A stretch of 64,000 nucleotides of DNA from Heterostelium pallidum (Eukaryota), in contig NW_008805086.1 in NCBI RefSeq assembly GCF_000004825.1, forward strand, positions 901,410-965,409, given 5' to 3'. A program made the position numbers and the translations under genes. The notes below the pieces were generated by a model. That model ran no database searches. It saw nothing but the letters and a program-made list of their open reading frames with translations, and was not told the DNA's origin. Positions within the stretch are counted from its first letter, which is position 1; each line of letters starts with the position of its first letter. Below are positions 16,531 to 64,000 of this stretch, piece by piece.

Positions 16531-17071
16531 ATATTTATTTGTAAACAAATAAAAAATAAATTGTTAATGAAACAAATTTCTAAAGTATCAATTTAAATAT
16601 ATTAATCCAAATTATGATATACTTATTTGGTACCAAGATAATACAATGATGTGTATATAGTGTAGATCTTTTTTTTTTCTATTCAATATATTCTAGTTTT
16701 CTATCGTTTGTTGCAGTAGCTTTGTTATTTACTTCACATTGTATTCGATTTATTGATTAGTTTTACTTATTATTAGATTAGATTCCATTGAAACAATTTT
16801 TAAATTTAATAATCATGAATGTGATCAAAAAGGAACTTAAATCAAACATGAAAAGCAACTTGAAGACTGTAGTATTTTCATTTATTAATTTTGTTTGTGT
16901 ATCGGGAATATTGATGTCCAAGTACACTTCGACGGGGCAAGCACGAATCCTCAGCTCAACAACAATAAGACAAACAAATATAAAAGCAAAACAATTTAAG
17001 ATAAAATCAAAGCTAAATATATTATTTAATAAAATTTAAATATTTGATTTTATAATTAGTTGTTGTATACA

Positions 17072-17250
17072 CGGGAGGCAACCAGCATAGGGACGAGAGG
17101 AGACCAGCATAACTACGAGAGATAACTGGCATAACGACGAGAGGAAACCAGCATAATAACGAGAAGAGTCTGGATTAACGACGAGAGGAAACCGGCATAA
17201 TAACGAGTGGAGTCTGGCATAACGACGAGAGTAGACCGGCATAGTAATTG
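17072..17250 (+). repeat. tandem array of about 22-bp repeats (family A: ggcataacgacgagaggaaacc)
   Basis: About 8 direct copies with variants (ataactacgagag, ataataacgagaag). Confidence 0.85.
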
Positions 17251-17639
17251 AAGATACAAATCATATATGTAAAAAATGATTATTTTGAATTAAATATATA
17301 TTTTTTTATTAAAAACCAAAAAAAATAAAAAAATTAATAAATGTAATTATAATTGATCAAATCAATTTTTTTTAAAGTAAGTTAGAATACTACCACACAC
17401 ATATCAATAATATATGCTATGTTAAGAGAAGTGAGGTGATTTACAATAGATCAAGATTGCAAGAAGATTATAAAGAATTAAGAGAAACTAATTAAAAAAT
17501 AAATTTAAATCTTTTTATAGGTTGAATGGTTTCACTTCACTGTTATAATTAAATTAAATCAGTTGTTTCCGAATTAAGTTCTTAATTACTCAGACATCAA
17601 AAAAAATTATTAAAGATTTTATATAAACATTTAGACAAT

Positions 17640-18120
17640 AAAATACAGCTACCAACAGAACCACAACTGACAACAACCACAACATCAAATAATTCATCAA
17701 CACCTCCAAACTCACTCATTTCCAGAAATATTTCATAAAGTTGAGGTTGATGATGTTGTTGGATAAGCGATAGTGGAATGACATTTGCTACTTCTGCTCC
17801 TGGTCAAGTAATTCAACATTTATAAGTATTTGGATTCAACAAAATTACTATTTCAATAAAAATTTAAACTACCCTTATAATTATCTATTAATTTTATTTT
17901 ATCGATTTGTGAAACTGAAGGAGTAGTTGAGCAGATGGAAATTGAGAGTGGCGTGTTCATCGGTAACCTAGTTATGGAGTTGATGGTAATTGAGTTGTAG
18001 AGTTGATCGAAACTAAGATATGTAGTTGAGGTAAGTATCTACAGTATCTGAGTTGTGGAGTTGACGGAAACTCTGGCTTCGGGCAACTAAGTATGGCAAT
18101 TGAGTCATCAACTCAGTCCA
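17640..18120. repeat. left inverted-repeat core (reverse complement of 24123-24515)
   Basis: For example 17725-17840 (ttcataaagttgaggttgatgatgttgttggataagcgatagtggaatgacatttgctacttctgctcctggtcaagtaattcaacattta) matches the reverse complement of 24365-24480. The left arm also contains an extra internal tandem copy. Confidence 0.8.
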
Positions 18121-21345: not shown

Positions 21346-23484
21346 GATTTATTTAATATATAAAAGTAATGAAATATATTTAAGAGTTTGTATGTTAAGT
21401 ATGATTTAAAAACGATCCAAAGGCTAAAATCTAAATTTATAATATCTATTTATGTATATATGTAATTTAATAATACTAATTTATTTTGAAATTTTTCACT
21501 CATTATATTTTTTAATTTTTTTTTTCTCAATACAATATTGTTTTTGATTGTATAGGGACATAGATAGGATTCTGATATTATTTCTTTTGTTTATTCAAAA
21601 GGCTTCACTAATCACTAGTAGTGATTGAACACTTTCAATTGCGTAAGTGGCAAAACAACAATTTTATGACAATAATTGAAAACTATCAAAAATAAAATGA
21701 AAAAGTAATAAAAATAAAGATAATTTCTTTAAATAAAATTAAAATTAATTTATTTCTTATTTTTAAAAGAAGAGAGTAAATGAGAAATCAACTATCTCTT
21801 TATTATTATTATCGATCACTATCTAAAACTATATTTGATAGAAATTTGAAAGATATATGTTAGTTTTGATCAATATTTTTCTTGAAAATATTGAGATATT
21901 AATAAAACTTACTTAGAAATAACAAATTAATATGAATATTACTTATATTGAAAAGAAAAATTTCGATATTAATAGTATTTACTAGTCTATAAATATTTAA
22001 AATAGATTTAAAAACAATCAATAATAATAAGAAACCGCCAAATTTTGAAAATAATTAACGTCATTTTATCCGATACTCTCAATTAAATAGAATAATATTT
22101 AAATATATAGATGTCTTAATTTAAAAGTTTGGTTGATGTTTTTTGATTGGCAAAAATATAAAAATAAAAAAACACACAATAAGAATAACCCACCCACACT
22201 TGACATTGTCATTCAATACCAATAAATCGTGAATCAAATCAATTAAATTGTGTTTCACTTTTAAATAAACAAACAAATATAATTTATTTAGATTTTATTT
22301 TGGTAATATATTTATCTCAACATAAAAGAAAGATTATTATATTAATTAAATATTTTATTCAATGAATACAACAAGTTGATATTTAAAATTAAAACAAAGT
22401 AATTTTTACTTAAAACTTTCAATTTTTTATTTATAATCAATTTATTTGTTAAAAGTATAAAAGATAATTTATTTAATTCTTAGTTTAAAAATATTAAATA
22501 AAAAAAACTAGAAAATAAAAGTGTACATTCCTTTGTTTTTCATTAAAGTTATTTAATGTTTCACCTTAACTCAACTTCAAAAAATAACAAACTAATAGTA
22601 ATCTTTAGATGAGTGTGATAATAGAAATATCTTGATATCATATATCATAATAATAATGTAATACAGATAAGATAAGAAAAAAGTTAAATCATTTAACTTG
22701 GTTTTATTCAATTGAAGAGTACAATCAACACTTACAATCTTGGGAAGTACGAATTATCAATATGACTATGAAAGAGATGTTTAGGAATGATGAATAAGTT
22801 GAACACTTTAATCTAACTATAGAATTCAATTTGAAATTTTCATTTTATAGTAAATCACTTCTATTCTAGTATAATTGTAATTATTGTTTTAGGACAGATT
22901 TCACGAATCAATCTATTACTATTACACAATATAATCATCTTACAATTTAAATAAATAATTATAGTTTTCAATTACAATAATAATATTCTTCAATTATTTT
23001 ATTTAACAAAAAACAACAATATTATTTTATTTTTGCAACATAAAAAAAAAAAAGATGAACTTGTCAAATAAAAATGGGGTGTTGCAAATTCAATAAATTA
23101 ATAAAATTTAAAATTAAGCTTGTTGTTTCTTCATTGGTAATGATCGCCTGTTTTTTTTATTTTTGAATATTATATTATAATAAAATGAATTATTTAATTA
23201 ATTTTAATATTTATATTTCAAATTTGAATATTAATTCAAACTTTTAATTGGCGCTTAACGGTTGCCGCCATTTTTGAGTTCAAACTGTAAGTTAACGAAT
23301 CAAATTTAAAACTATATAAACCTATAATTTCTTTCACAATGTCATTTTTCATTATTTTTCAAATACAAATAATTTTGTAAGTAATAACTAATAGTTATAA
23401 CTTTAACTTATTTATATCTTTGTTTTACTAACTCTTTGTTTTATCTCTTTTTATCTCTTTCTTCTTTTCCAAGTCCTCTTTACC

Positions 23485-24122
23485 ATGCCAGTTGCCTCCT
23501 TACTATGAGTGATGCCTCGTTGCTATGATGGTTACCTCTCATTACCATGCCAGTTGCCTCTCGTCGTTATGCCAGTCTCCTCTCGTAGTTATGCCGGTTT
23601 CCTCTTGTAGTTATGCCAGCTTCCTCTCGTCGTTATGCCCGTCTCTTCTCGTTTCCTCTCGTTACTGTGCCCGTTTCCTCTCGTAGTTATGCCGGTTACC
23701 TCTCGTAGTTATGCCGGTTACCTCGTTACTATGCCGGTTACCTCTCGTTACTATGCCGGTTTCCTCTCGTCATTATGCCTGTTTCCTCTCGTCATTATGC
23801 CTGTCTCCTCTCGTAGTTATACCGGTTACCTCTCATTACCATGCCAGTTTCCTCTCGTAGTTATGCCTGTCTCCTCTAGTCGATATGCCAGTTGCCTCTC
23901 GTAGTTATGCCGGTTTCTTCTCGTTACTATGCCGGTTTCCTCTCGTAGTTATGCCTGTCTCCTCTCGTAGTTATGCTGGTTTCCTCTCGTAGTTATACCG
24001 GTTTCCTCTCGTAGTTATGCCGGTTTCCTCTCTTTGTTATGCCGGTTGTCTCTCGTAGTTATGCCAGTCTCCTCTCGTCACTCTGCGGGTTGCCTCTCGT
24101 CACTATGCCGGTTTCCTCTCTT
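23485..24122 (+). repeat. tandem array (about 29 copies) of the 22-bp family-A repeat in inverted orientation (atgccggtttcctctcgtagtt)
   Basis: Visible directly. It is the reverse complement of the 17072-17250 unit. Confidence 0.9.
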
Positions 24123-24592
24123 TAGTTGACTCAGTTAACTCAATTGCCGTACTTAGTTGCCAGAATCCAGAGTTTCAATCAACTCCACAACTCGGATGCT
24201 GTTGATAGATACCTCGACTCCATAACTCAGTTACCAATGAACACGTCACTCTCAATTTCGATCTGCTCGACTACTCCTTTACCATCAGTTTCACATTTTG
24301 ATAAAATAAAATCAAAAGATATAATTAAAAAGGTAGTTTAAATTTTTATTGAAATAGTAATTTTGTTGAATCCAAACACTCATAAATGTTGAATTACTTG
24401 ACCAGGAGCAAAAGTAGCAAATGTCATTCTACTACCACTAATCCAACAACATCATCAACCTCAACTTTATGAAACATTTGGGGAAATGAGTGGGTTTGGA
24501 GGTGTTGATGAATTATTAGTTTCTCGTTACTATGCCGGTTGACTCTCGTAGTTATGTCGGTGTTATGCCGGTTTCCTCTAGTGGTTATGCCA
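24123..24592. repeat. right inverted-repeat core (24123-24515) plus a short family-A array (24520-24592)
   Basis: See the left core. The terminal segment is tttctcgttactatgccggttgactctcgtagttatgtcggtgttatgccggtttcctctagtggttatgcc. Confidence 0.8.
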
Positions 24593-55536: not shown

Positions 55537-55802
55537 ATATTTAATGTAATATAAATAAAAATAAAACATATATATATTTAAACATATTATAATAATAATA
55601 ATCATGAGGTAATGATTTATGCATTCTTTCTTTTTTTTTTTTTTTTTTCTAAATGATTGCCGATAAGAAATAATTAATAATCAGTTTTTCAAATTAAACT
55701 GTCAGTAAAATATAATTATGTAATTACACCTAGGTGATTATTAGACTATAGAGTAGTTGTTCTAATTATCTTGTGTACAACATTTACTTATTTCTATTAT
55801 AT

Positions 55803-57827
55803 ATGTCAAATAGTATAGCAGATCTACCAAATCATTTATTAAAGAAAATAGTTTTAAATGGTCTTTCAAATTTAGATTGTGTATGTCCAAATTTAGTATG
55901 TAAGAAGTTGTTTGAGAATAGAGAGAAGTATCTTTATTTGACTTATCTCTTTCAAGTGTCATTAAGAAATGTGAAACACAGATATGTCTAAAGTCTTATG
56001 CCAATATTTTACAGAAAGGTGTAGAGTTGAAATCATTCAACAATGAGTGCATAATGAAGTTGTTCAGTACACCACCAGATAAAGTGAGTGGATTTGAACA
56101 AACCTATGATTATATAGATTCATTTGGTAATAATATTATTATTATTATACCATATCAAAACATATATATACTAACAAGTTTTAATAATTTTTTTTTATTT
56201 CTAATAAATAAATAATTATAAAGATAATCCAAATATGAAGATACCTAGTGGTGTAAAGAATTTGACTATTGCTGGAGATGGATTCGGTCAGTTACCTGAT
56301 CTCTCGATGTGTAATGCTAGATCGATCGTTCTCTTTACTGGTGGCGTTTTGGAGATCAAGAAAGATACTCTACCAAAGATGCTGAAATCTTTATATCTCT
56401 CATCTACGCTGCAAGACAACTTAGAGCCCGGGATATTCCCTGATGGCATTGAAGAGATTAGCTTTGCAGAGAGCAATAGCCAGTTCTACCAAGCAAACCT
56501 CTTCCCTATCGGTTTGAAAAGACTGTGTCTGCATTCAAACAATATCGAACCATTCACTGATGGATCACTGCCATCTACTCTGGAGAGTCTCGCCATTGAT
56601 TTAAATTGTTTTCTCTCAAATACCAAGTATCTTAAACACCTTGGTTCTTTAAGTAGCTTAACCTTTTCCTATAATACCGGTGCACCTTCGGATCCAACTA
56701 AACTAAGAGGCGCACTCAGCTGCTTTGCAAATCTATCATCAGTATCATCTATTCCCTACAAGTATCTTTGTTATTTACCAAAGACACTAAAACGGCTCAC
56801 TCTCTGTGAGGATGAACTCGATGGAATAACCATTAAAAGTGATACATTCCCACCTTCACTTACTGAGCTCGATATGTTAGAGGTAATGGATTTCAAAATA
56901 GAGATTGGTAGCATACCTGCATCTGTTCAAAGATTATCAATACGAGTGGATCACCAGCTCAAACCTGGAATGTTACCGGCGTCACTTATCGATTTGGTGA
57001 CAAAGGCATCCAAAGAAGGTGAAGCCTCATCCTTCTTTCTCTTGGCTGCTGGTTTGGGTGCGATTGGTTTCGGTTCAACAGCAGCGGCTGCCTTCTTGGT
57101 GGTTGCCTTCTTTGGCATCGCAGGCTCATAGTCATCATCATCATCGGAATCCAAAGTCTTCTTCTTGGGAGCAGCTTTAGCTTTTCTGGTTCTTGGTAAA
57201 GCTGTCTTTCCTTTGACAGACTTCTTGTATTTGTCTCCTTTATCTTTAAGTCTTTGATCCTCTGCGTCTTGTTTCTTAATCACTGCCATGACGAATGTAG
57301 ATACATTCGTAGTAGGATCATTGCCTAATACTCTAAAGAGTCTGGTGTATCATCCCTCCATTACAGTACCATCATTGAAACCATTGGTATTGCCTAACTC
57401 TCTCGAGGAACTCACACTCGGATACCTCTGTAAATCTAATCTCAAGCCGAATGTGTTGCCACCTAATCTTAAGAAGCTCTCATTGTTATGTAAATATAAA
57501 GTTAAATTACCAGACCCTGCTGTATACCCTTTATCGCTAACAGAATTGGATTTGAAATCTTCAATATTGGTTAGAGACGATCAACACCAATCCACACTAA
57601 AGCCAACTGATTATCCGGGATTGAGTGTTCGACTTGATCCAAATTACTTTATCAAAAACACACTGGAGAGCATACCACTTCAAATCACGACAATAGATCT
57701 TACCAGTATAAAGCTAAGAAGAATCAAAGACAATTTATTCATATGTATATCAGGTGGATTCATCAACAATACAAAGCAACTTAGAAATCATTTGTCATTA
57801 TTAACTAAAAATAAAATAGTAATATGA
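55803..57827 (+). CDS. FNIP-repeat protein (Dictyostelium-type LRR-like repeats) with F-box-like N-terminus; interrupted by a 285-bp duplicated top2 segment (56993-57276)
   Basis: N-terminal MSNSIADLPNHLLKKIVLNGLSNLDCV. FNIP-type units recur: IPSGVKNLTIAGDGFGQLP, LPSTLESLAIDLNCF, GMLPASLIDL, GSLPNTLKSLVYH, LPNSLEELTLGY, LPPNLKKLSLLCKY. As sequenced the ORFs are 55803-55991, 56027-about 56131, 56235-57131 and 57288-57827. The 5' intron positions are tentative. Confidence 0.5.
56993..57276 (-). repeat. about 99 percent identical duplicate of the first 285 nt of the top2 terminal exon (copy 1; partner at 62329-62613)
   Basis: On the minus strand it encodes KQDAEDQRLKDKGDKYKKSVKGKTALPRTRKAKAAPKKKTLDSDDDDDYEPAMPKKATTKKAAAAVEPKPIAPKPAAKRKKDEASPSLDAFVTK, and ORF 56951-57289 starts from its own ATG at the junction. 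It differs from the top2 copy by one C-run length and by cttcttctt versus ctttttctt. Confidence 0.85.
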
Positions 57828-57971: not shown

Positions 57972-58658
57972 ATGTTTAGAATGATAAGTAGTATTGGCAA
58001 ATTATCACATGTTAGAGGAATTATATTTGATCTAGATGGCACCCTTACAAAGCCGATAATGGACTTCAAAAAGTTAAGGAGTGATCTCGGTATTACTACT
58101 CCAGGCGTCGATATTCTAGAGGTTATCAAGACGTGGAGTCACGAGAAACAAGTGGAAGGACACAAAATCATCTATGATTTCGAAAGAGAAGCGTCTTTGC
58201 GTTTAGAGTTTCAACCGGGCGCATCGGCTTTGATGGATACTCTCGAGCGACTAAACATAAAGAAAGCGATTCACTCACGTAACTCAATAGAGAACATCGA
58301 GTACTTTCAAGAGAGGTTTGGATATACATTCTCACCGATAGTCGGTCGTGAGATTGAACCAAAGCCAAGTCCAGCAGGTAGTCATCACATTGCCAAGCAC
58401 TGGCAGATGCAACCCTCTGAGATACTGTTCGTTGGAGATTCTCAAGATGATATGCGATGCAGCCGAGCATTCGGCTCACTAAGTATTCTTTTGTTGAATT
58501 CATCCAATAAGCATTATACAGAGCTAAGCGACATCGCCATCGAAAGTCTATCAGAGTTATCGGAGGCATTGGAGCAATCTTTTAAAAACAAACAAATAAG
58601 TAATAGTACATCAACAGAAAATAGTAACTTGTCAAATAGTAATATATCAGTAAACTAA
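57972..58658 (+). CDS. HAD-superfamily hydrolase (phosphatase-like), single exon
   Basis: Motif I IIFDLDGTL, a cap region, motif III K, and motif IV GDSQDDMRCSRAFG. Confidence 0.8.
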   Translation: MFRMISSIGKLSHVRGIIFDLDGTLTKPIMDFKKLRSDLGITTPGVDILEVIKTWSHEKQVEGHKIIYDFEREASLRLEFQPGASALMDTLERLNIKKAIHSRNSIENIEYFQERFGYTFSPIVGREIEPKPSPAGSHHIAKHWQMQPSEILFVGDSQDDMRCSRAFGSLSILLLNSSNKHYTELSDIAIESLSELSEALEQSFKNKQISNSTSTENSNLSNSNISVN

Positions 58659-59903: not shown

Positions 59904-60834
59904 ATGATGTTCAAAAAAACAATTATTTGTCTTGTTTTTACTATTGTTTTATGTTTGTCTTGGTTGAGTGCAGCCAATGCTTTGACTCAAACAGCCAAGC
60001 AAGTCGCAATTTCACCAGGTTCCTATATGTGGTATTTGGAGTATCTTCCACCAACTTACTCTGCGACAGGACCAAATAAATCTCCAGTCCTTATTTTCTT
60101 ACATGGTGTTGGGCAAAATGGAGACGGATCACAAGGTGCCCTTCAAATGCTTAAGGATGCTGCAGGTTCTCCTCCATACATGATCGACAAGAATACATGG
60201 CCAACTACTTTCTCTTTCATTGTAATATCACCACAAACCTGGGGTTGGTGGGATTCACCAAAAGTAAGTTAATAGCTGTTAGGTTTATCATTATAGAAAT
60301 GTATTAATTTTAATTTATATTCTAGACTGTTCCATTAATTAATCAAATTGGAGCTTTATATCCAGGTGCCGATATTACAAGAGTCTACTTAACTGGTCTT
60401 TCCATGGGTGGAGCAGGAGTTTATGATACCATGCGTCAAAGTAAAGCTGTTTGTGATAAGTTGGCTGCGGTTATTCCCATTTGTGGTGCTCAAGGTTTTG
60501 GTGCCAACGATTGGATTGGTCCAGTTACATCAGTAAGTTAAATAAGAATAGATTAAAATTATTACTTTTAAATAAAAACTAATTGAAATCTTTCTTATTA
60601 TAGGGATTGCCAGTGTGGGCTTTCCATAACTCTAATGACCCGACGGTCTCTGTTTGGAATTCTAGAAACTGGGTAAATGGTTTGAATGCTCAAAATATTT
60701 GTCCAGTTGCTAAATATACAGAATATGTTGCTTCTTCTCATGATGCTTGGACTAAAACTTATGATGTTTCACCAACTAATCCAAACAATATCTACTCTTG
60801 GATGCTTTCATACACTACCAACAGAGTATCATAG
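59904..60834 (+). CDS. secreted alpha/beta-hydrolase esterase (PHB-depolymerase / carboxylesterase-like); exons 59904-60263, 60322-60532, 60604-60834
   Basis: Signal peptide MMFKKTIICLVFTIVLCLSWLSAANA. Oxyanion region PVLIFLHGVGQNG. Nucleophile elbow LTGLSMGGAG. Acid/His region VWAFHNSNDP...YVASSHDAW. Two GTAAGT introns, phase 0. Confidence 0.8.
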
Positions 60835-61807
60835 TGGTGGAACTACTTCTACCACAGGAACACCATCAACCACTGCACCATCAACTACAACCACAACCAC
60901 AGGAACACCATCAACCACTACACCATCAACTACAACCACAACCACAGGAACACCATCTACCACTACACCATCGACTACAACCACAACCACAGGAACACCA
61001 TCAACCACTACACCATCTACTACAACCACAACCACAGGAACACCATCTACTACTGCACCATCTACCACTGGAACTCAAACACCAACCCCAACATCAACTC
61101 CAGCTCCAGGAGTTTTCCAAAGAAAGTGGACTACTCCAGCCTCTCCATTTGGTTTCTGGGAGTACAGACCATCAACCACTCCAACACCAGGTATTGGATA
61201 TCCATTAATTATCCATCTTCATGGAGCTGACGGTGAGGGTACTGGTAGTTCCACTGATTTGAACAAAGCAGTTCAGACTTCATTACCAAAGTACATTAGA
61301 ACTGGTGAATGGCCAACTACCTATCCTTTCTTGGTACTTTGTCCACAAAACAATGGTATTTGGGATGCCGGAGTAAGCAATGTAATCAACACCTTGCTTG
61401 ATCTCTACTCGCCAGAGGTTGACCCAACTAGAATTTATTTGGTAGGTCAAGGTCGTGGTGCTCTTGGTGTAGTTCAATATTTGAAGAGCAATGCTACTCG
61501 TATCGATAGAACTGCAGCAATCTTCAATGTTAGAGTTTACACTGATGCTCATAACGCTACCATTGATCTCATGGTCAATGATCACCTTCCAACATGGTGG
61601 TTAACCAACAACGATGATCCAAACTCTGATCCAATCATGACAAAGAACTGGGCTAACTTCTTAAATGCACGTGGTGCCAACCCAGCTGCAAGACTAACTA
61701 TTAACCCATCTGGTGGTGCTGACTCATACACACCAGCATTCAACCCTGCCAACGCTGACCCAAACAATGTTTACAATTGGCTTCTATCAAAGACCAATGT
61801 TAGATAA
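60686..61807 (+). CDS. paralogous esterase-like protein: Thr/Pro-rich linker + hydrolase-fold domain lacking the catalytic Ser (GQGRGALG); start inferred from an ATG overprinted on the 3' end of the upstream gene
   Basis: The 373-aa ORF starts at a real ATG at 60686, in the +1 frame of the upstream gene's last exon. Its N-terminus MLKIFVQLLNIQNMLLLLMMLGLKLMMF is hydrophobic. A (GTPSTTTPSTTTTTT)n linker follows. The domain PLIIHLHGADGEGTGSS...VGQGRGALG...NVYNWLLSKTNVR* is collinear with the domain of gene 59904-60834. Confidence 0.45.
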   Translation: MLKIFVQLLNIQNMLLLLMMLGLKLMMFHQLIQTISTLGCFHTLPTEYHSGGTTSTTGTPSTTAPSTTTTTTGTPSTTTPSTTTTTTGTPSTTTPSTTTTTTGTPSTTTPSTTTTTTGTPSTTAPSTTGTQTPTPTSTPAPGVFQRKWTTPASPFGFWEYRPSTTPTPGIGYPLIIHLHGADGEGTGSSTDLNKAVQTSLPKYIRTGEWPTTYPFLVLCPQNNGIWDAGVSNVINTLLDLYSPEVDPTRIYLVGQGRGALGVVQYLKSNATRIDRTAAIFNVRVYTDAHNATIDLMVNDHLPTWWLTNNDDPNSDPIMTKNWANFLNARGANPAARLTINPSGGADSYTPAFNPANADPNNVYNWLLSKTNVR

Positions 61808-61950: not shown

Positions 61951-64000
61951 TTAATCATCACTGTCATCACCGATGGCATCGTCACTATCATCAGAGGTAA
62001 AGAAGTTCAACTTTGGAAGTGTATTTCTAGTTCTAGTTGGTCTTGGTTTTGGTGGTGGTGTTTCTGCATCAGAGGCCTCCGATTCCTGATCACTGATAAA
62101 ATCAGATTCTGATTCTGATTCTACCTTTTTCTTTTTGGCAGCGGCCTTCTTCTTTGCGGGAGCTGGTTTTGGTGGAGCTGGTTTGCTAGTTTCTTTGACC
62201 TTCTTTGTTGGTGGTACAAAGTCGTCATCGTCATCATCAACGATAAATGAATCTTGATCTACATCCATACTATCATCATCTAAATTAACAGTTGCAACCT
62301 TCTTTGCTGCGGCAGCTGGTTTACTGACTTTGGTGACAAAGGCATCCCAAAGAAGGTGAAGCCTCATCCTTCTTTCTCTTGGCTGCTGGTTTGGGTGCGA
62401 TTGGTTTCGGTTCAACAGCAGCGGCTGCCTTCTTGGTGGTTGCCTTCTTTGGCATCGCAGGCTCATAGTCATCATCATCATCGGAATCCAAAGTCTTTTT
62501 CTTGGGAGCAGCTTTAGCTTTTCTGGTTCTTGGTAAAGCTGTCTTTCCTTTGACAGACTTCTTGTATTTGTCTCCTTTATCTTTAAGTCTTTGATCCTCT
62601 GCGTCTTGTTTCTAAGTAAATTAAAATAAATGTTAATAAGTTGTTGATATAGTAATGATAGATATTGATAGGATTGATAGTTACATCAAGAGATTCCGAG
62701 AATTTATCTAAATCTAAAAGATACATTGTTGTGATGGCAGTTCCTCTAAGTTTATCGAGTTCAACCTTCTTCTTTTCTCTTTCCTCTTGGATCTTCTTGA
62801 CACGCTCCAATGTCAAACTCCACAATGGTAGAGAGAGCAGGTAGTCGTATCCTCTGCAGTCGTCATCCATTTCCATTTCATCGTCGGATCCTTCTTCTTC
62901 TTGGTCAGAATTAACAGCGAGTTCCTCTTCTACCTTGTCGACCTTTGATTTCTTGACTTGCTCTTCAGCCTTCTTACCGACCTTCTTTGAGAACTGATCA
63001 AACTTCATCTCTTTCAATTTCTTTACCAAGTCGAGTCGCTTTACATTGGCAATCACAAGTTCCTTATTGACCACAGCAAGGATAAATCTAGCTTTGTTTG
63101 AAAGTCTTCTGTGTTCCTCTTCAAGTTTATCACATAAATAATCCTATTTCATGAAAATAAAATTAATAAATAAATATTGAATCGTTAAATTAAAAATAAA
63201 TATATTAATTATATATACCTTTCTCTTTTGATAGTATTCCAATCTAATCTTGAAGAAATATTTGATGATATCGGTTGTTGTTTCGAATTGTTTGATTCTA
63301 CCTTCTTCATCAAATACAGTCATATTGGTTTCTGCCAATTTCTTTTCCAATTTAAAGGTCTTGTTAACATCGATTTCATCGACTGGCTTCAATGTTTCAA
63401 TAATGAAATGAATAGAACCAACTGTACCTTGATTGGACATTGACTAAATAATAATAATAACAGCAATAATTAATAAACTTGATTCGAAGACGTTTGAAAG
63501 ACTTTTTTTTTTTTTTTTACTTACTTTGACAATTGGATCAGCAATAACAACTTCATCATCATCTTCATCCTTCTTCTTTCTCTTTACAACCTTGGTTGAT
63601 GTAGCTTTACCTTTCTTGACTTGTTTAATCTTTTCTTTGGCTTCCTTTCTCTTTTGTTTGCCTTGTGGATCAATGAGATTCTGTACGAGATCCTTAAAGT
63701 CATTTGTCCAAGACTCGATGGGGAGTTCGGTAATCTCCAAACGATATTCGTCCAACTTTCTCCAGACACCCTTGGCAACGAAATTCGATGTCTTTCCAGT
63801 TTGAAGCTCGATGGTGCCTTTGAATCCTCTGTACCATGGCACGATTGGCTTCAATTCTTTGCCTTCGATGAGCAACTTCATGTTCTCAATCAAGTCACGT
63901 GGGTTGTAGTTGGGAATGGTCGATGACCAACCAGTACCGATACCCTTGGATCCATTGACCAAGATCATAGGGATCACTGGAATGTACCATTTCGGTTGGA
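61951..64000 (-). CDS. top2: DNA topoisomerase II, 3' portion (continues beyond the window end); exons 64000-63525, 63443-63219, 63143-62685, 62611-61951; apparent 1-nt frameshift at about 62346
   Basis: MIPMILVNGSKGIGTGWSSTIPNYNPRDLIENMKLLIEGKEL..., IIKYFFKIRLEYYQKRK|DYLCDKLEEEHRRLSNKARFILAVVNKELV..., and YDYLLSLPLWSLTLERVKKIQEE all align to human TOP2A. The acidic/Lys-rich tail ends ...PRPTRTRNTLPKLNFFTSDDSDDAIGDDSDD*. Donors are GTAAGT, GTATAT and GTAACT. The terminal exon reads in two frames joined at ggcatCCCaaag. Confidence 0.85.
62329..62613 (-). repeat. top2 terminal-exon segment that is duplicated at 56993-57276 (copy 2, in situ)
   Basis: See copy 1. The boundary at 62613 lies 2 nt into the top2 intron (the acceptor AG). 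The other boundary at 62329 lies inside the exon. Confidence 0.85.

Follow-up and report, generated by a model that had tools for sequence, protein, structure and literature searches.

How did the start of the last exon of a DNA topoisomerase II gene (top2) come to lie in the middle of the coding region of another gene, and has it become an intron there? The question is raised by a 64,000-nucleotide stretch of the genome of Heterostelium pallidum (RefSeq assembly GCF_000004825.1, contig NW_008805086.1, positions 901,410 to 965,409 of the forward strand), hereafter the window, in which a gene encoding FNIP repeats carries a segment of top2 in antisense orientation. A preliminary description of the window proposed that this segment may behave as a newly acquired intron. 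Our analysis points to a different answer. The segment was probably inserted recently, by break repair or template switching, from top2 of strain PN500 into the FNIP gene, which it disrupted; in this reading top2 as assembled carries a frameshift, and the hypothetical protein PPL_04532, whose reading frame spans the insert, is a by-product.

The duplicated segment

The segment is present as two direct copies on one strand, at 56993–57276 (284 nt) and 62329–62613 (285 nt). They are 99.6% identical, in agreement with the roughly 99% given in the preliminary description, and top2 sense is the minus strand in both. The copies differ by one substitution (C at 57161, T at 62498), which is synonymous in the top2 frame (AAG/AAA), and by one homopolymer base, CC at 57010–57011 against CCC at 62346–62348. 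In the window, exactly two occurrences were counted for each of two 40-mers of the block, where shuffled sequence gives an expectation of 0.00. A repeat search of the whole 64-kb window returned neither a third copy nor any other dispersed repeat of this kind. Donor and target are 5.3 kb apart on one chromosome, the insert lying upstream of the donor with its orientation retained. Owing to a 1-nt ambiguity at each junction, the true length of the insert is 282–284 nt.

The donor gene and its frameshift

The C-terminal part of DNA topoisomerase II is encoded on the minus strand between the end of the window and 61951 (Pfam PF00521, 136.7 bits), with the breakage-reunion domain (DNA_topoisoIV) matched on exons upstream of the terminal exon. 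The product is 57% identical to Top2 of Acytostelium subglobosum (GAM24783.1), and its tail is colinear with that protein through to the C-terminus (E = 3e-41). A first homologue search missed even this 57%-identical protein, and the lack of a top2 self-match among the PPL proteins therefore says nothing about annotation.

The terminal exon (61951–62611, minus strand), delimited by three-frame translation, Pfam, the orthologue and GC content, encodes a Lys/Asp/Glu-rich C-terminal tail that is spread over two frames as assembled. The last intron (62612–62684, minus strand) has 73 nt, a GC content of 0.21 and the boundaries GTAACT...TTAG, and lies at a conserved exon junction, where SESLD/KQDAED matches EELD KQDHED of the Acytostelium orthologue. 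The donor segment (62329–62613, minus strand) comprises the first 283 nt of the terminal exon, from 62611 down to 62329, plus the acceptor AG of the intron at 62612–62613. The earlier observation that one end of the block falls within 2 nt of the top2 acceptor is thereby confirmed, the exon starting at 62611 and the block reaching 62613. The segment is intact in place and colinear with the orthologue.

As assembled, the first frame of the exon reads KQDAED...KRKKDEASPSLGCLCHQSQ and ends at a stop codon, the break falling at the CCC run (62346–62348), where an extra base shifts the frame of the tail. The second frame reads ...DAFVTKVSKPAAAAKK... and continues to DDSDD and a stop at 61951. The copy in the FNIP gene, with CC at this place, has an uninterrupted frame, ...DEASPSLDAFVTK, and Acytostelium Top2 crosses the point of the frameshift colinearly (KRKKDD...KKIDSYFTKV) to reach its C-terminal LPQLKYFASDDSGD. 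The in-frame reading SPSLDAFVTKV is backed by the orthologue and is retained in the FNIP copy only. Furthermore, the GC content is 0.42 as far as the distal stop and 0.23 past it. As judged from these reading frames, the continuous frame of the copy and the colinear Acytostelium orthologue show that the FNIP copy retains the ancestral, correct Top2 frame and that a +1 frameshift is present in the assembled top2 locus.

The extra C at 62346–62348 is probably a homopolymer sequencing error in the consensus. The alternative is that it is a real and very recent mutation in the essential top2 gene. The genome was presumably sequenced in part by the 454 method, which is prone to homopolymer errors.

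An alternative AG lies 7 nt inside the terminal exon. Its use (intron 62684–62605, minus strand) would connect the upstream exon with an open frame of 732 nt that extends as far as the distal stop. A gene predictor that chose this AG at 62605 could mask the frameshift but would get about 88 residues wrong; the orthologue backs the canonical acceptor.

The interrupted FNIP-repeat gene

The target is a large coding exon (56235–57827, plus strand) that the insert divides into two open reading frames (ORFs) sharing a common frame, ORF1 at 56235–57131 and ORF2 at 57288–57827. FNIP repeats (PF05725) are matched with 74.4 bits upstream of the insert and 33.9 bits downstream, and with about 95 bits when the two parts are rejoined (cut-off 21). 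The insert is antisense to the FNIP gene. With FNIP matches flanking it on both sides, the claim that a piece of the top2 terminal exon had been duplicated in antisense into an FNIP-repeat coding region was correct. The insert had also been said to separate two FNIP units, but it sits within one. From codon GAT at 56991 to codon TTA at 57276 there are 285 nt, and deletion of 282 nt (56994–57275 or 56993–57274) joins ...LPASLID to LITAMTNVDTFVVGSLPNTLKSL.... The unit rebuilt in this way, LPASLID/LITAMTNVDTFVVGS, has the normal spacing of 22-residue units; after excision the units start at residues 227, 247, 269, 292 and 314, at distances of 20, 22, 23 and 22.

Read in the FNIP frame, the insert encodes VTKASKEGEASSFFLLAAGLGAIGFGSTAAAAFLVVAFFGIAGS and then brings the first in-frame stop, TAG at 57129–57131 (plus strand), with a second, TGA, at 57255–57257. 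As the first stop is met 45 codons into the insert, the FNIP gene is most likely a nascent pseudogene or the source of a truncated protein. The truncated product would end in the hydrophobic tail SSFFLLAAGLGAIGFGSTAAAAFLVVAFFGIAGS (Kyte-Doolittle 19-mer mean up to 2.04), which is expected of the antisense image of a Lys/Glu/Ala-rich Top2 tail. Within it, a 35-residue segment rich in Phe, Leu, Ala and Gly (57000–57128, plus strand) resembles a transmembrane helix at the C-terminus of the truncated protein.

Neither a homology search nor exact look-up of four plausible products turned up a protein model with the FNIP ORFs in the public collection. The search for homologues of the FNIP gene returned paralogue-level matches only (23–37% identity), and these data therefore provide no cross-species comparison with an empty site. 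Possible upstream exons of the gene at 55773–56215 had no Pfam match. The idea of an F-box-like upstream ORF at 55773–55991 was dropped, as it had no match in Pfam.

Junctions

Outside the block the flanks of the FNIP gene and of top2 are unrelated. Only a T is shared at each junction, or else the TTT of the reconstructed target CGATTTAATC, giving a microhomology of 1–3 nt. Neither a target-site duplication, nor a terminal repeat, nor a poly(A) or A-tail was found at the insert junctions. The simplest reading is a clean insertion in the middle of an FNIP unit with no loss of target sequence, under which positions 57277–57300, the 24 nt to the right of the block, are original FNIP sequence.

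Two features lie close to the right junction. A perfect 9-bp palindrome, ACGAATGTA-ga-TACATTCGT (57291–57310), starts 15 nt from it. Inverted repeats of this sort number only 15 in the window, of which no more than 3 contain 3 or more G/C in the stem. Furthermore, the 11-mer ATCACTGCCAT at 57279–57289 recurs in the FNIP gene at 56564–56574 in another frame, and about 1.2% of the 24-nt windows in the gene have such an 11-mer match. The palindrome may mark a spot prone to form structure next to the break, or be left over from foldback during the repair; the 11-mer may be the trace of a second template switch, and either feature may also be due to chance. Foldback copies of such size are described at yeast breaks (PMC11724301).

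Origin of the insertion

The segment is colinear with the tail of Acytostelium Top2, yet interrupts an FNIP repeat unit, and the transfer therefore went from top2 to the FNIP gene. The reverse transfer, from the FNIP gene to top2, was rejected because of the colinearity with orthologous Top2 tails. Over 284 nt the copies differ by no more than a synonymous substitution and one base of a homopolymer, which indicates that the copying was recent, and the nearness of donor and target (5.3 kb) argues for copying or capture in cis and not for a fragment drawn at random from the whole genome. The anatomy fits a known class of events, namely insertions, templated or captured, that arise when a double-strand break is repaired or when replication switches template, because the donor is intact and near, a few hundred nucleotides were copied, microhomology is minimal and hallmarks of transposition and retroposition are lacking. 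A transposon or a retrocopy was rejected, there being no terminal repeats, duplications or poly(A), as was a tRNA-targeted element, since no tRNA genes are present in the window.

A sequence of events consistent with this anatomy would begin with a break or a stalled fork in the FNIP exon, which would then be repaired from nearby sequence. The top2 sequence could have been copied as a template, by microhomology-primed template switching or by break-induced synthesis followed by end joining. Alternatively, a released top2 fragment could have been captured by end joining.

Several points weigh against this reading. The repair pathway is inferred from the junction anatomy alone, and the insert is known from the assembled sequence of one strain (PN500). 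Given the palindrome 15 nt away and the recurring 11-mer, the right junction may be complex, with foldback synthesis and a further patch of templated sequence perhaps having taken the place of about 24 nt of the target; the clean and the complex reading of this junction are both forms of break repair. Weak cryptic splicing of the insert may occur. Finally, a purely DNA-level model leaves the end at the exon boundary unexplained, apart from the sharp change in composition found there.

This last point is where an RNA-linked origin, which we regard as possible but doubtful, has its appeal. It holds that the source of the insert was a transcript of top2 or an R-loop formed on the terminal exon, the R-loop having supplied displaced or hybrid-primed DNA from the boundary between AU-rich intron and purine-rich exon, and it would explain why one end coincides with the first base of the exon. 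That end lies 0–2 nt from the exon start, a coincidence whose chance for either end we estimate from the intron density at about 1–3%. Purines make up 62% of the donor's top2 sense strand, and the GC content, 0.21 in the intron, is 0.45 in the exon. In human cells, transcribed donors and DNA/RNA hybrids drive templated insertions (bioRxiv 10.1101/2022.09.30.509517). On the other hand, the coincidence with the exon boundary was noticed post hoc, and the R-loop part is speculative. The fragment is not derived from spliced mRNA, because it crosses no exon-exon junction, has no poly(A) and may include 1–2 bases of the intron (AG).

It is quite unlikely that the insert is an artefact of assembly or cloning and that the FNIP gene of the organism has no top2 fragment. 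The same sequence does contain at least one probable consensus error (CCC for CC), and searches for independent data found no match: in exact-sequence look-ups ORF1, ORF2, the 112-aa ORF that corresponds to PPL_04532, a neighbouring HAD-hydrolase ORF and PPL_04533 had no match in the contig collection, and scans of metagenomes for the FNIP left flank and for the duplicated block returned none either. However, a chimeric read or a mis-join produces one junction, whereas two are present here; their outer flanks adjoin exactly, without loss of frame, and together restore a full FNIP unit. The copies also differ from each other by a substitution.

Is the insert a new intron?

The preliminary description envisaged an intron from a GTGAAG donor 22 nt into the insert to a TAG acceptor at its far edge, the removal of which would keep the FNIP repeat spacing (LIDLVTKASKE-D-TFVVGS). 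Both sites exist at the right distance from each other, but not where they had been placed. The donor starts at 57019, 26 nt into the block, and the acceptor (57298–57300) lies 22–24 nt past the block, in FNIP sequence. The hypothetical intron GTGAAG...TGTAG (57019–57300, plus strand) is therefore a 282-nt span that is shifted by 26 nt relative to the insert. The spacing is kept, as claimed, but this does not single out the proposed splice. The insert has 282 nt (3 x 94), and any excision of that length restores the frame and the 22-residue spacing. The Pfam FNIP scores of the proposed spliced product (95.1 bits) and of simple excision (94.9 bits) are not separable.

For comparison we used 15 introns of the window, inferred from ORF continuity and composition, and built the scoring matrices from them. 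These native introns have 62–121 nt, 9–24% GC and GTAAGT-like donors; their donors score 6.3–11.0 bits and their acceptors 1.9–13.0 bits. The proposed intron has 282 nt and 45% GC, and its donor (1.7 bits) and acceptor (-2.8 bits) score below those of all 15. Among the GT...AG pairs that remove both stops in frame, 37 in number, the best totals just 4.0 bits and none is in the native range. Size, GC content and splice-site scores being all outside the native range, the suggestion that the fragment behaves as a new intron finds no backing. By these measures the insert does not appear intron-like, and its splicing is not supported.

We consider it very improbable that intron gain has been caught at birth here, with an antisense fragment of a coding exon already spliced at least in part from FNIP transcripts, through cryptic GT...AG sites that remove the insert or the shifted 282-nt span, so that FNIP protein is still made. 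Break-repair insertion is an accepted model of intron gain, in which latent sites in or beside the insert are usable (PMC3443670, PMC4202315), and frame and spacing would survive the removal of 282 nt. Frame preservation, however, comes from the length of the insert alone, which had a 1-in-3 chance of being a multiple of three. If the insert were spliced after all, the locus would hold a rare new spliceosomal intron with both its exact genomic source and its insertion mechanism visible. Such a documented source for a new intron is unlikely on present evidence.

The 112-aa ORF and PPL_04532

On the minus strand the insert is spanned by a chimeric ORF of 112 amino acids (56951–57289), composed of 4 aa of FNIP antisense, about 95 aa of Top2 tail and another 13 aa of FNIP antisense. 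A profile search with the top2 tail found it to be identical to the hypothetical protein PPL_04532 (EFA82837.1, XP_020434954.1, UniRef100_D3B7U4), carried in NCBI, UniProt and EukProt. The free-standing 112-aa ORF that the insertion was said to have created is thus real as an ORF and present in the public proteome. Its ATG, placed exactly at the junction in the preliminary description, is found at 57289–57287, 11–13 nt outside the block. No Pfam family matches the ORF, and PPL_04532 forms a one-member cluster. The locus tags PPL_04530 to PPL_04536 were not found in the searchable literature, nor in the examined supplements of PMC5282741 and PMC4931340.

Most likely, PPL_04532 is a by-product of the insertion and an annotation artefact, not a real gene. 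That it is a genuine new protein-coding gene born from a captured fragment of the Top2 tail is extremely unlikely, despite its intact ORF with an ATG and its listing in NCBI and UniProt, as about 95 of the 112 residues are merely the Top2 tail frame, copied too recently for decay, and the ORF lies within a coding exon of another gene, without an AT-rich promoter-like region upstream, without a Pfam family and alone in its cluster.

Neighbouring sequences

The FNIP gene has as its neighbour a single-exon HAD-hydrolase ORF (57972–58658), which matches PPL_04533 (EFA82838.1) of Heterostelium album PN500, the former Polysphondylium pallidum, with 100% identity. A gene with two esterase-like halves (59904–61807, plus strand) is situated between this HAD gene and top2; its first ORF has a weak, sub-threshold match to Abhydrolase_2, and the halves are joined by a Thr/Pro/Ser-rich linker that 45-nt tandem repeats (60797–61147) encode. 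Farther away, about 6.4 kb separates two sites, 17070–17890 and 23430–24520, at which arrays of a 22-nt tandem repeat and a 202-nt segment (93% complementary) are inverted relative to each other. The arrays contain no long ORF, and their arrangement is not a simple mirror-image inverted repeat.

Significance and comparison with known systems

The locus is a well-resolved natural templated insertion in a dictyostelid genome, with donor and target 5.3 kb apart and junctions that can be read base by base. The kind of mutation is already known, and this is a new example of it. For the reference annotation it implies several corrections, namely a spurious PPL_04532, an interrupted FNIP gene (56235–57827) for which no protein model was found, and a frameshift in the essential top2. 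In yeast, mitochondrial or Ty cDNA fragments are captured in this way and Dna2-deficient cells acquire large insertions; the 'filler DNA' of plants is a further example.

Processed (retroposed) gene fragments resemble the insert in that a piece of a gene has moved into another one and has an exon boundary at one of its ends. The insert differs from them in having no poly(A), target-site duplication, exon-exon junction or mRNA 3' end. Intron gain by break repair (PMC3443670, PMC4202315) likewise places foreign DNA in a coding exon, removal of which would restore the frame, and such gains can draw on latent splice sites within or adjoining the insert. The neo-introns of Daphnia are AT-rich relative to exons, and their splicing has been shown by cDNA, whereas the present insert is exon-like with 45% GC. 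It is more than twice as long as the longest inferred native intron, has no native-like splice sites and is known here from DNA alone.

Closer parallels are found among replication-based and break-repair insertions. As in fork stalling and template switching (FoSTeS) and break-induced replication mediated by microhomology (MMBIR; PMC8421209), a short templated insertion has its source close by, lies in direct orientation and shows microhomology where the template was switched, and the right junction may hold extra small templated patches or a foldback. In contrast to MMBIR, where insertions scored in genomes are usually tens of nucleotides long, only one clear template is evident here, with minimal microhomology.

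The templated insertions of human cells have donors that are enriched within 100 kb of the break and in transcribed loci; they show microhomologies of 2–3 nt, and their formation depends on end joining as well as on DNA/RNA hybrids (bioRxiv 10.1101/2022.09.30.509517). Like the class 2 insertions described there by Indel-Seq (Min et al.), the insert in the FNIP gene spans a few hundred nucleotides and was copied from a transcribed locus that lies far less than 100 kb away on its own chromosome, with the donor unchanged, 1–3 nt of microhomology and neither target-site duplication nor poly(A). It is unlike them in being a natural and apparently fixed event in a dictyostelid, which has left the target without detectable loss and which has one end at an exon boundary.

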